From the NCBI GenBank assembly GCA_902384455.1, contig CABMCB010000100.1, forward strand, positions 1-45,030: DNA of 45,030 nucleotides, read 5' to 3'. Both the position numbers and the translations under genes were made by a program. This DNA is from an uncultured archaeon. GTDB taxonomy: Archaea; Altiarchaeota; Altiarchaeia; IMC4; SCGC-AAA252-I15. The notes below the pieces were generated by a model. The model saw nothing but the letters and a program-made list of their open reading frames with translations, ran no database searches and was not told the DNA's origin. This document shows, piece by piece, positions 6 through 45,030 of this stretch. How positions within the stretch are numbered: position 1 is the stretch's first letter; each line of letters begins with the position of its first letter.

Positions 6-110
6 CACCCCACACATTTTACACATAATGTCAATAGCAAAACAGTGAAAAACAGTGTGTAGACAAGGGAAAACGTGTCTTCTGAAGTGTGGGATATTCC
101 ACGGAATAGA
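6..110 (+). repeat. Left inverted terminal repeat (ITR)
   Basis: CACCCCACACATTTTACACATAATGTCAATAGCAAAACAGTG...GATATTCCACGGAATAG is the reverse complement of 44926-45030 with a few mismatches and indels. Confidence 0.95.
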
Positions 111-128
111 CATGAGTTTGACATTGTA

Positions 129-344
129 TCACAACTTTGGCGAGTGTTTTATACATTGTTTGAACACACAGGTGTGTGTTTTCTTTATCTCCCCCTCTTC
201 ACCTCCTTCAACGTCTTCCATACAGTGTGGGTCGTCACAATCATCAATACAGATTGGACATGGTGTATGACCACAGATAGTACATGTGGCAGACATACAT
301 TCGTCACAGTTCTTTATCTCTTCATTGACTGTGGGATATTCCAT
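129..344 (-). CDS. Small Cys-rich hypothetical protein
   Basis: Several CxxC pairs; fits the minus-strand gene run. Confidence 0.6.
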   Translation of the reverse strand: MEYPTVNEEIKNCDECMSATCTICGHTPCPICIDDCDDPHCMEDVEGGEEGEIKKTHTCVFKQCIKHSPKL

Positions 345-348
345 AGAA

Positions 349-732
349 TTATCCTTGACTCGCCGTCTTGATGTTTATCTCACCTTCTGATTGTAGTGTT
401 TGCAGTATGTCTAACACACTCCGTAGTTCATTGCCGCTTGCATCGTAGAATCTGTCACCCCTTTGAAACCCTTTAGTGAATGTAGTAAGCAATGCAATGG
501 TTTTTGCGTAGGTATCTTCACGCTTGTCGTCTTGTTGACGCATATCGTATAGACTGGGGAAGTGATAGATTCTAGTGTTGAACGTTTTCCCCGTGCGTAT
601 GTCTGGCCCGATTGTTTCGCAGGGGGCAGTACGGCATTCTCTACACTCAACTTGTTGCATGCCGTTGTATACTCCACAGTGACAACACTTGTATCCGGGC
701 GCTATATACTCTGAATCAATGTATGTACACAT
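349..732 (-). CDS. Hypothetical protein with N-terminal Zn ribbon
   Basis: CCHC...CREC motif; tightly packed with neighbours. Confidence 0.65.
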   Translation of the reverse strand: MCTYIDSEYIAPGYKCCHCGVYNGMQQVECRECRTAPCETIGPDIRTGKTFNTRIYHFPSLYDMRQQDDKREDTYAKTIALLTTFTKGFQRGDRFYDASGNELRSVLDILQTLQSEGEINIKTASQG

Positions 733-905
733 AAGTCACATCCAGTGCAAACGAAGATGCCTGTTCCGTTTTCGATTCCAGCTCTGTAGTGTATGTTTGA
801 TATGGCTCCGCAACGTGGACAATGATGATGAATGTCAAGCGTCGGTTGTACTCCTAGTTTTGCTGTACATCCGTCGCCAACTTTGGGCGGTTCGTAGTAT
901 TCCAC
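702..905 (-). CDS. Small Zn-ribbon protein
   Basis: CPRC...CTGC. Confidence 0.55.
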   Translation of the reverse strand: MEYYEPPKVGDGCTAKLGVQPTLDIHHHCPRCGAISNIHYRAGIENGTGIFVCTGCDLCVHTLIQSI

Positions 906-1004
906 AGAATATCTATCCTTTTAGAATCTTGTGGAGATGCCAACCGATGATAATACCAGTTGTCATCATTAGGGCGCCGAAGTAGAGTGCTTGTGCTACA
1001 GGGT

Positions 1005-1406
1005 TCATTCCTTTTCATCATTGTAACGGTGGTCGTGTGGCTCTTTTGCCCAATCTTCTATTGGTATACTCGAACTACACGGGTTTTCTTGTGGTAAGTT
1101 AGGTATAGGTGCCCAGTATTCAGGCTGTTCACGCGTTTCGTAGTAGTATTGATTCCCGCGTATTCCGTATGATTCGTCATACACTTTATTGTCGCCCGGT
1201 ATGACGGTTCCCCCTCTGTAATGGCCAATGAGCACGTCAGACCAGTTTTTGCTGTAGAACAGAACGTCAATGTTTACTGCGGGTCGTTCTTTTGACGTTC
1301 GAGTCCACGTGTTGGTGCTGCGTTTTAGAATGAATTCTTCGTCTACCTGTTGAAGGAAGTTGTTCATCAGTTTGAGGAGTTGTCCCTTGAATTCCTCCTG
1401 TGTCAT
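1005..1406 (-). CDS. Hypothetical protein
   Basis: 133-aa ORF in the minus-strand run. Confidence 0.6.
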   Translation of the reverse strand: MTQEEFKGQLLKLMNNFLQQVDEEFILKRSTNTWTRTSKERPAVNIDVLFYSKNWSDVLIGHYRGGTVIPGDNKVYDESYGIRGNQYYYETREQPEYWAPIPNLPQENPCSSSIPIEDWAKEPHDHRYNDEKE

Positions 1407-1620
1407 TGGGTGGTATAGCCTTTCTTGTTTCTATCCCGTGTTTCTTTAGTATCCGTGATATATATCCTTGTGAAACGCCATACAGTTCTGCAATCTCTTT
1501 TTGAGGCATATCCCCTTCGTAGAATTCGATAACAGCCGCTTCGAATTCTTCAAGGCTTTTGGATATACCTTCTGTTGAGTTGAGCCGCTTGTGTACTTGT
1601 TGGAGAAAGTTGCTTGCCAT
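1267..1620 (-). CDS. Helix-turn-helix DNA-binding protein
   Basis: MPQKEIAELYGVSQGYISRILKKHG is a typical HTH; a box P copy lies 11 bp upstream. Confidence 0.75.
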   Translation of the reverse strand: MASNFLQQVHKRLNSTEGISKSLEEFEAAVIEFYEGDMPQKEIAELYGVSQGYISRILKKHGIETRKAIPPNDTGGIQGTTPQTDEQLPSTGRRRIHSKTQHQHVDSNVKRTTRSKH

Positions 1621-42607: not shown

Positions 42608-42739
42608 TGGAAACCCAGATACCACATACACTCAATCATCACAAGTGTGAACTGTGTGACTTTGACAACTGTGACTGCCCACACTGTATTCACATAAAAC
42701 GTATGCGCACTGACCCCCAGATAAAACTTTGGTGGAACA

Positions 42740-42922
42740 ATGAAAACGTTGCAAGTGAACCCCCAGTGGACCAAAGGTAACTGTCCCGGTTGTGGGTTGA
42801 CCATCTACATTGATGATGTCAACAAGAGAACCATGCATCAAGACCCACTTTGCACCTGGTACACAGACTTTTGCTCCAAAGCTAAGTGTGAAGGTAAAGT
42901 AGAACTCATAGAACACACATAA
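42740..42922 (+). CDS. Small Cys/His protein
   Basis: CPGC...HQDPLC. Confidence 0.5.
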   Translation: MKTLQVNPQWTKGNCPGCGLTIYIDDVNKRTMHQDPLCTWYTDFCSKAKCEGKVELIEHT

Positions 42923-42953
42923 TCATCAACCTGTATTCCATGGAATAAAACCA

Positions 42954-44108
42954 ATGAAGTGCCGCTCATACATCAAACACCCTAGGTTCCGCAAAAACAT
43001 AACCTCTTCACAGTTCACACCTAAACAACTAGCGGCATTCTACGGATTCCCGCCCAATACTACAGGTATTGGTAAGAAAGTTGCCGTTATCGAACTTGGC
43101 GGCGCCTACAACCAAGGTGACCTTGATACGTACTTCAAGAGCCTAGGCCTAACTGTAAAGCCTGTTGTGTTCCACTCTATCGACGGAGGGCAGAACACTT
43201 CAGACGGACCTGATGGCGCCGACGGTGAAGTCATGCTCGACCTCTGTGTCATTGGTGCAATGGCGCCAGGTGTTGAGATGCATTGCTACACAGCACCCAA
43301 CACTGACCAAGGATTCCTTGACGCCATAAACCAAGCAATCACCGACAAGATGGATTGTATCAGTATCTCATGGGGCGCACCCGAAGACCAATGGAGCGGT
43401 CCCATCGTTACTGCATTCAATGCTGCCTTTCAAAAGGCTGGTGCTGCGGGTATCACGGTCACTGTTGCTGCTGGTGACAATGGTTCTACCGATGGCGAGA
43501 TTGGAAACCATGTTGACTTCCCAGCAAGCTCGCCCTTCGTCCTTGCTTGTGGAGGTACCAGTGTTCTAAGCGTTTCACCTGTGAATGAAGTTGTTTGGAA
43601 CGACGGAAGCGCTGGCGGTGCAACAGGTGGCGGTGTTAGCGGTGTACTAGGCTTACCCACGTGGCAATCAAAAGCAAACGTGCCTGGAGGTAGAGCTAGA
43701 GGAGTACCAGACGTAGCCGGCAATGCAGACCCAAACACTGGTTGGATTATCATGATTGACGGGCAACAATACGTCATTGGCGGTACCAGTGCCGTTGCTC
43801 CAATGTGGGCCGCTCTAGCCGCCTGCCTAAGTCAGGTTGTTGGTAACGTTGGATTCCTGAATCCCTTCCTGTATAACCAAGGGGGTTGGGCACGTGACAT
43901 CGTCTCAGGAAACAATGGGACTTACACTTCACGCGTGGGTTGGGACGCATGTACTGGCAATGGCGTTCCAATTGGAACCAAATTGCTTGCAATGCTACAA
44001 CCAACAGTACCACCCACGCCACCTACGCCACCCACACCGCCCAAACCAACACAACACACCATTGTTGTCACTGGCTCTATCACAGTTGACGGCAAACCCG
44101 TCACATAA
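42954..44108 (+). CDS. S53 (sedolisin/kumamolisin) peptidase, catalytic domain only
   Basis: DGEVMLD (ExxxD), SISWG, AAGDNG, RGVPDVAG, GGTSAVAP, GWDACTGNG; PT-rich tail. Confidence 0.92.
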   Translation: MKCRSYIKHPRFRKNITSSQFTPKQLAAFYGFPPNTTGIGKKVAVIELGGAYNQGDLDTYFKSLGLTVKPVVFHSIDGGQNTSDGPDGADGEVMLDLCVIGAMAPGVEMHCYTAPNTDQGFLDAINQAITDKMDCISISWGAPEDQWSGPIVTAFNAAFQKAGAAGITVTVAAGDNGSTDGEIGNHVDFPASSPFVLACGGTSVLSVSPVNEVVWNDGSAGGATGGGVSGVLGLPTWQSKANVPGGRARGVPDVAGNADPNTGWIIMIDGQQYVIGGTSAVAPMWAALAACLSQVVGNVGFLNPFLYNQGGWARDIVSGNNGTYTSRVGWDACTGNGVPIGTKLLAMLQPTVPPTPPTPPTPPKPTQHTIVVTGSITVDGKPVT

Positions 44109-44233
44109 CATTAACCCGGTACCTCTGGCCTGCGAGCTAGGGGCTAAGTCGTACGCGCTAGGCAAGCAAGAGTCTCCCCCCCGACTCTGGGCTCCCCGAA
44201 AGTATAGAGCCGGAACTTTCTCAAGAGTGACCA

Positions 44234-44449
44234 ATGAGGATAACTAACAAGGTGACACGCGTCGAACAATGTACCTGTGACCACACTGATTGCTCAGAAG
44301 TCAAAGATGTTGACCACAACATGGTCGCGCCAAAGGACTGGACGCAAATATCAGACCTCCTAGGAGCAAAAAACTACCACTTGTGTCCAGTGTGTTGGAA
44401 GAAACTACTGGAATTCTTCAAGAATCCAAAGGCGAAGGAGAAAGTATAA
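44234..44449 (+). CDS. Small Zn-finger protein
   Basis: CDHTDC...LCPVC. Confidence 0.6.
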   Translation: MRITNKVTRVEQCTCDHTDCSEVKDVDHNMVAPKDWTQISDLLGAKNYHLCPVCWKKLLEFFKNPKAKEKV

Positions 44450-44853
44450 TGGTAAGCTGGAAAACGACCGTAGCAGGAATCATCGCAGGAGCAATTCCAA
44501 TACTTCAAACAATAAGTGGTTCACTGCAAGTTGGGGGGCACATAAACTGGTATCAGATTGCCTTCGGCCTAGCTATTATGGTGCTAGGTGTGTTCGCTAA
44601 AGACATTGGCGTTCCCCCAGCGGCACTTGCAATCATATTCACACTGTCAATCCTCAGTCCACTAACAGTTGCATGCTCAAGTGGTATCAAAAACACAATT
44701 GGCGCAACCTGCCCGGCCAATGCAGTGTGTGACCAGGTTGACTTTGGTTACGGAGTGTTCACTGCCTGTCTATCACCCAGTGATATGCCAAAGTTACAAG
44801 CTGCTGCCGCTCAAAGTAGAGCACGAATCACACAAGAAGACGCGGGAAAGTAA
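44449..44853 (+). CDS. Holin-like membrane protein with internal lipobox-like motif
   Basis: AAGGAG RBS; SWKTTVAGII...LGVFAKD, third hydrophobic stretch ending LTVAC. Confidence 0.5.
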   Translation: MVSWKTTVAGIIAGAIPILQTISGSLQVGGHINWYQIAFGLAIMVLGVFAKDIGVPPAALAIIFTLSILSPLTVACSSGIKNTIGATCPANAVCDQVDFGYGVFTACLSPSDMPKLQAAAAQSRARITQEDAGK

Positions 44854-44925
44854 CCCACACTTCGACACACAGTCAAGAGCCCTCGCGACACACGGTCCCG
44901 GGGGCTTCCCTGTATAAAAATCGTG

Positions 44926-45030
44926 ACTATTCTATGGAATATCACACTCCAGGCAGAGACGTTTTCCCTTGTCTACACACTATTTTTCACTGTTTTTGCT
45001 ATTGACATTATGTGTAAAGTGTGTGGGGTG
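44926..45030 (-). repeat. Right inverted terminal repeat (ITR)
   Basis: Reverse complement matches 6-110. The counterpart of left positions 1-5 (AAGAC) is missing, so this end may be 5 nt short. Confidence 0.95.

Follow-up and report, generated by a model that had tools for sequence, protein, structure and literature searches.

The 45,030-nt contig CABMCB010000100.1 (below, the window, i.e., the whole stretch of DNA analysed), one entire contig (C100) of a 2.41-Mb bin with 103 contigs, is a phage-like linear element, and it carries from end to end an array of a 14-bp palindrome that is real, selected and family-wide. The word TATTCC-NN-GGAATA (TATTCCNNGGAATA) occurs exactly 16 times in the window and was never met in 100 dinucleotide shuffles, exact matches to TATTCYRYRGAATA number 29 (none in shuffles), and 36 copies are found with up to one mismatch, against a shuffle mean of 0.06. 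A second null, preserving every protein and the codon usage (200 runs), averages 1.2 copies at that threshold and never exceeds 4; with up to two mismatches it yields 6.8 copies vs the 42 observed, so that a few of the 42 may be due to chance. The initial annotation had counted about 41 copies of a word that should be nearly absent by chance, and had called for shuffled and codon-preserving controls as well as a test of spacing; the enrichment holds under both nulls. The remaining 102 contigs of the bin (2.37 Mb) contain 11 copies with up to one mismatch and a single exact one, which makes a host factor or a Chi-like site unlikely as an explanation, although the host assignment is itself weak. 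Motif scans of IMG/VR returned, among the matches listed, only single-copy loci and one locus with two copies; the phage collection searched by DNA and single-protein locus scans gave nothing useful, and no published account of such an array was found in the literature searched.

The first copy lies at 95 and the last at 44928-44941, and the widest gap is 2962 nt, in agreement with the end-to-end coverage and the largest gap of about 3 kb described initially; the terminal copies, one near each end, fall in the imperfect inner portion of the terminal repeats, which had likewise been said to contain them. The coefficient of variation of the gaps is 0.54-0.56. Copies placed uniformly would give 0.96 (P<5e-5) and copies drawn at random from 94 junction points 0.93 (P ~1e-4 to 3e-4), i.e., coverage is as even as claimed and gene boundaries alone do not explain the spacing. 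Most copies occupy stop-to-next-start intervals: according to a crude greedy list of open reading frames (ORFs), not a gene caller, ca. 31 of the 36 lie within ~55 nt of an ORF end, often 0-5 nt past the stop codon, and ca. five deep in genes. Junction copies often overlap the stop codon and precede an ATG by 2-9 nt. Thus, copies do exist in all the settings named by the initial annotation (gene junctions, promoters and coding regions), but those deep in genes are a small minority.

Relatives were collected from metagenomes via the gene for the protein-primed-type family B DNA polymerase (polB), which has 1476 homologues at E<1e-5, and 85 related loci form the comparison set. Loci with a polymerase 50-88% identical to that of the window carry the same motif at ca. 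1 per kb and at the same positions, and sites in the ParB-like gene, in 17612-18376, at the junction of the ATPase gene with 20446 and elsewhere are conserved in 10-11 close relatives. More distant relatives have different 12-15-bp palindromes at 0.7-2 per kb, e.g., TAATCCTAGGATTA (31 copies in 15.5 kb of locus L173), TAAGCCTAGGCTTA, TAGCACTAGTGCTA, CGTTCATWATGAACG, CAAACCTAGGTTTG, TTATTCCGGAATAA, CATTTC-RY-GAAATG and CAATMC-YR-GKATTG, and relatives of the L203 type have an oriented, asymmetric and degenerate TAATTC-AY-GAACTA. Spacing is even in 11 of the 13 related loci tested, and no array was detected in roughly a dozen loci, many of them short. A k-mer peak in L206, considered as an array motif, proved to be a tandem repeat (15031-15250, ~18 copies of a 10-14-nt unit, GCGAGCCTGGTCGG), and a separate array is present in this locus.

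In the in-gene copies, a DNA signal clearly constrains the sequence of the protein. Those reported initially in polB (encoding LFRGI) and in the ParB-like gene (ILRN) are both present, and the conservation that had been proposed as a check is found: the polB copy persists in relatives even where R is replaced by H, and the copy at 10423, within the ParB-like gene, is retained by all 10 close relatives compared, with ILRN standing where ParB proteins customarily have a V-R-P stretch. At columns 992-995 of the polB alignment, five motif classes (14 loci) each carry their own palindrome and encode different peptides there (SNPRISD, GKPRLRS, ISTSAS, GYSGINT, PKPKFG). Given that each class has its own palindrome at the same column with different amino acids, selection acts on the DNA word, and, as judged from these alignments, the array is under selection at the level of DNA.

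The symmetry of the site is equally informative. Only transitions are seen at its four centre positions in the window, and the motif classes of other lineages are perfect palindromes, symmetrical through the centre. Changes at positions 6 and 9 are always single (15-16 cases), never double, and the sense-orientation variants C..A and T..G are balanced (8 vs 8), so pairing in RNA is not preserved. Symmetry through the centre without wobble asymmetry argues for a double-stranded site and a homodimer rather than an RNA hairpin. An RNA hairpin was therefore discarded (neither compensatory pairs nor wobble asymmetry), as was a by-product of Shine-Dalgarno sequences, which leaves the left half-site unexplained and is at odds with several lineages that have a separate Shine-Dalgarno sequence after the motif. 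A promoter for each gene was also ruled out, since a perfect palindrome is directionless and 2-9 nt before an ATG is too short for a promoter. At junctions, the centre dinucleotide reads AC in the sense direction 88 times and GT 39 times (pooled, non-independent counts), a bias of ~2:1; inside genes there is none (29 vs 32). The centre dinucleotide also flips between the two arms of the window (Fisher p=0.023), and as compositional skew flips in parallel, the AC bias may be mutational.

Promoter-like and terminator-like matches overall are no more frequent in the window than in shuffles. The best sigma-70-type promoter matches lie at 19188 (-), 20408 (+) and 10719 (-), each accompanied by a copy of the motif (Table 1). 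In 13 loci that together represent five motif classes (nine close relatives plus L173, L124, L193 and L187) the near-consensus promoter that precedes the conserved rightward gene block has the motif of its lineage 3-13 nt upstream of the -35 box, and a further copy often stands in front of the ATG. Four repeated units on the minus strand (11832-11890, 13147-13205, 14172-14233 and 14476-14537) consist of the motif, AAAGG, ~22 nt and TATAAT or TATATA, with 27 nt between the end of the motif and the -10 box; a clear -35 box is missing, and the units resemble promoters of a second class that may depend on a factor. The window also has eight copies of a GC-rich hairpin unit (GGACGCYTAGGAACRCC-loop-GGGGYG, 27-29 nt), several of which occupy the widest gaps of the array. 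In four of the eight the half-sites of the 14-mer flank the unit, as though it had entered the palindrome in the middle, and the unit is nearly restricted to this genome (one copy in 17 related loci).

Among the proteins of the element, an orphan member of the ParB/Noc/KorB family is, on sequence grounds, most likely the best candidate binder in the window's lineage. It is the only DNA-binding protein recognised in the window, it keeps GFRR, E143/N144/R147 and the helix-turn-helix (HTH), and its profile matches in the PDB, which span the CTPase and HTH domains, are to Noc (7ol9, 3e-15), Spo0J and KorB. Family scores stay below cut-offs (TIGR00180, 40.7 bits vs 58.45; the NCBIfam Noc model, 31.9 bits vs 315; Pfam matches as well), and a Gln falls opposite the Noc specificity position 173 in an alignment made by hand and eye only. 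ParB-like gene and array occur together in the window's own class, L187/188, L198, L199, the L203 type and L206. Of the traits of ParABS systems, the element shows the CTPase N-domain (GxRR, ENxxR) and the HTH of a ParB, though scoring below the family cut-offs; it has 36-42 evenly dispersed copies instead of the few clustered parS sites of a centromere. A ParA partner was not found in the window, where the only P-loop ATPase is RadA/Sms-like, and the ParA-binding motif, defined as [LFI]G[KR]G[LFI] at the ParB N-terminus (PMC12704722), is present in 0 of 30 ParB-like proteins. Lacking both, the element is unlikely to perform ParABS segregation.

Iterated operators have already been described in phages and plasmids (L5 stoperators, KorB OB sites), and the array is thus not the wholly undescribed system for which it had been taken. 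The Cluster A mycobacteriophage L5, as outlined in PMC9283540 and PMC6550527, has more than 20 13-bp stoperators over a genome of ~50 kb, in promoters and short intergenic spaces, and the stoperator motif varies between subclusters along with repressor and immunity. The window shares with the L5 stoperators, whose repressor is gp71, the many copies at promoters and in short intergenic spaces and a motif that varies by lineage. It differs in that stoperators are asymmetric, monomer-bound and strictly orientation-dependent, whereas its own sites are palindromic with a bias of only ~2:1, in the selected in-gene copies and in belonging to a protein-primed linear phage type with terminal repeats; family searches recognised no homologue of a stoperator-type immunity repressor among the window proteins. 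In the temperate phage phiC31, the c repressor binds palindromic conserved inverted repeats, which occur many times across the genome, at a lower copy number than here and in an unrelated phage. KorB is summarised in PMC11790492 as a ParB-family CTPase with palindromic operators across a mobile element, which slides along the DNA and thereby silences promoters at distances of up to 1.5 kb. Palindromic, dispersed operators are common to the window and the KorB/OB system of plasmid RK2, and the window's ParB-like protein has weak KorB matches. RK2, however, has about a dozen OB sites, and KorB has the partners KorA and IncC, whereas in the window ~40 sites fall within 45 kb and neither a partner nor a ParA was recognised. 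Noc is presented as an orphan ParB without ParA partner, with palindromic Noc-binding sites (NBS) dispersed over the replicon (PMC7383237, PMC8429893). The likeness of the half-site to parS and Noc sites noticed initially is well founded, in that the NBS TATTTCCC-GGGAAATA and the parS consensus, as given in PMC7383237, resemble the window's TATTCCRYGGAATA, and a protein of ParB/Noc type, with 7ol9 as its best match, is encoded. Noc differs in being chromosomal, with a site density hundreds of times lower, and in acting in membrane tethering and cell division.

The reading that we prefer, and in which we would place about half of our confidence, is that the array serves as operators for an element-encoded homodimeric regulator, by which the entire genome is silenced or occupied. 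We infer from the sequences that a protein binds the sites and that its binding represses. The palindromes would be double-stranded binding sites for this homodimer, i.e., iterated operators; initiation would be controlled by the copies at the few strong sigma-70-type promoters, and those at junctions and in long genes would retain the protein at intervals of about a kilobase, either to form roadblocks or to load a sliding clamp. The two long divergent operons would in this way be silenced or occupied as a whole, and a site sequence specific to the lineage would give each lineage its own, immunity-like, specificity. Given few promoters and two long operons, the junction copies fit roadblocks or loading sites. 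The initial annotation had held the in-gene copies and the even coverage against operators, but we prefer operator-type regulation because the copies are strongly tied to junctions and strong promoters. Several observations weigh on the other side: the distance from motif to -35 box is variable (3-13 nt), the motif centre near -47 of the consensus promoter is not the classic position for occlusion, the orientation bias is slight for a stoperator-like system, and even spacing with in-gene copies would fit a coating or organising role equally well. Moreover, no ParB-like gene was found in the examined parts of the array-densest loci L173, L185, L124, L193 and L207, a DnaA-C-type HTH protein is carried instead by L173, L181 and L189, and L127, L172 and L194 have a ParB-like gene with no array detected. 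The ParB-like protein is accordingly proposed only as a candidate binder.

These phyletic gaps lend themselves to an alternative that retains the operator/roadblock role and that we consider unlikely, namely that a small repressor that escaped recognition binds the sites, in true analogy to stoperators, and that ParB uses few sites or none. In favour of it, most early ORFs have no family match, a 76-aa protein (19220-19450) is confined to lineages whose motifs share a TTC-RY-GAA core, and the DnaA-C protein accompanies three arrays; apart from ParB, though, the window proteins showed no recognisable DNA-binding fold, and the predicted fold of the 76-aa protein (predicted local distance difference test score, pLDDT, 77) has no match at E<=0.001. 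The DnaA-C protein, 162 aa long with a DnaA C-terminal HTH domain (E 7e-14), is encoded in TAATCCTAGGATTA-array relatives (L173:6625-7113, L181:4275-4763 and L189:3063-3587), and the half-site of that array, TAATCC, is in our estimation loosely like a DnaA box.

Quite unlikely, in our view, is a non-regulatory coat, in which the linear chromosome would carry ParB-type clamps, loaded at intervals of about a kilobase, that organise, tether, partition, package or shield it. The initial annotation leaned towards such a role (coating, organising, segregating or shielding), and its grounds stand insofar as the array is non-random, even and selected as DNA; spacing is more even than the junction null predicts, selection maintains in-gene copies in long genes, the ParB-like protein is closest to Noc, and one copy lies near each terminus. 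Yet the copies are anchored at junctions and promoters, the five array-rich loci without a recognised ParB-like gene are as awkward here as for the operator reading, and segregation is made unlikely by the missing ParA and ParA-binding motif. Very improbable is a role as displaced-strand hairpins in protein-primed replication, serving as priming or protein-loading signals about every kilobase. Spacing close to the size of Okazaki fragments, the flip of the centre dinucleotide between arms and the half-sites flanking the hairpin unit in four of eight composites would accord with it, but the hairpin of the 14-mer is marginal (-0.4 kcal/mol with DNA parameters, -1.5 kcal/mol with RNA parameters), its centre is self-complementary, copies are sequence-identical with no compensatory changes, and no primase was recognised in the window. 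We give least credence of all to an RNA-level signal (processing, termination, translational operator) or to passive linkers or mobile micro-repeats promoting module exchange, which the junction copies overlapping stop codons just before an ATG would suit, but which are contradicted by the absence of wobble asymmetry, compensatory pairs and a T-run, by in-gene copies selected at fixed positions, and by terminator-like matches not above shuffles.

Regarding the element itself, the terminal inverted repeats are near-perfect to ~80 nt and imperfect to ~120 nt. Five extra bases at the left end (AAGAC, 1-5) are unpaired with the right end (45026-45030), so one terminus may be incompletely assembled. 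Gene direction diverges at ~19.2 kb, leftward on one side and rightward on the other. Besides the polymerase, the products include endolysin-like proteins, an S8 peptidase, NUDIX and RadC-like proteins, the RadA/Sms-like ATPase and the ParB-like protein; family searches gave no match for most ORFs, most early ones included. A capsid candidate (23939-24964) has a poor model (pLDDT 59.7) with jelly-roll-type matches at a template modelling (TM) score of ~0.17, and a conserved 170-aa protein (20446-20958) has no PDB match. The neighbouring paralogues 32270-33535 and 33565-35052 share 300 nt at 79% identity (32259-32558 vs 33554-33853), both with weak tail-protein matches in PHROG. The window polymerase is present in 0 of 60 other genomes from the bin's small-genome phylum, and related contigs are placed in metagenome-assembled genomes labelled Pyrinomonadaceae and Polyangiaceae; the host is thus uncertain, and membership of the contig in the bin may be chance binning.

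Table 1 Coordinates of the array, associated promoters and repeats, and key genes in the window
Feature	Position	Strand	Remarks
Palindrome array TATTC-YRYR-GAATA	95..44941	.	36 copies (<=1 mismatch) to 42 (<=2); mean gap 1.1-1.3 kb
Motif copy with near-consensus promoter TTGACA-17-TATGCT	20389..20436	+	Copy 5 nt upstream of -35 box; before rightward conserved gene block
Leftward near-consensus promoter TTGACA-17-TATGAT	19108..19188	-	Degenerate copy (CATTCCGCGGAATG) downstream
Promoter-like site before ParB-like gene	10691..10760	-	2-mismatch motif copy upstream
In-gene motif copy in polB (LFRGI)	14979..14992	-	
In-gene motif copy (FRGI) in basic protein 17612-18376	18128..18141	-	Kept across close relatives
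Orphan ParB/Noc/KorB-family protein, candidate binder	9587..10657	-	GFRR, ENxxR motifs, HTH
Protein-primed-type family B DNA polymerase (polB)	14682..16925	-	Marker used for collecting relatives
Hairpin units	4338-4377, 5789-5829, 8668-8707, 9063-9098, 36384-36408, 40343-40383, 41593-41620		
Example of ~41-nt composite	40343..40383	+	Motif half-sites flanking GC-rich hairpin unit
Left terminal inverted repeat	1..120	.	Near-perfect to ~80, imperfect through motif copy at 95; partner 44911-45030

Taking these results together, we tentatively suggest, as a possibility that we regard with considerable doubt, that a large family of uncultivated, phage-like linear elements of the protein-primed type marks its genomes with a lineage-specific 14-bp palindrome about every kilobase, under a pressure that suffices to rewrite the polB and ParB proteins, and that an orphan ParB-CTPase loads at all copies and covers the chromosome from end to end, which would amount to a virus-encoded, sequence-programmed chromatin providing whole-genome silencing and lineage-specific immunity. 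If the preferred operator reading is true, genome-wide operator or clamp-loading arrays would extend from a few models to an abundant family of soil and wetland elements (with 1476 polB homologues), the at least 10 switched site specificities would constitute a natural series for the co-evolution of a protein and its DNA site, and a function would be supplied for orphan phage ParB-like proteins.

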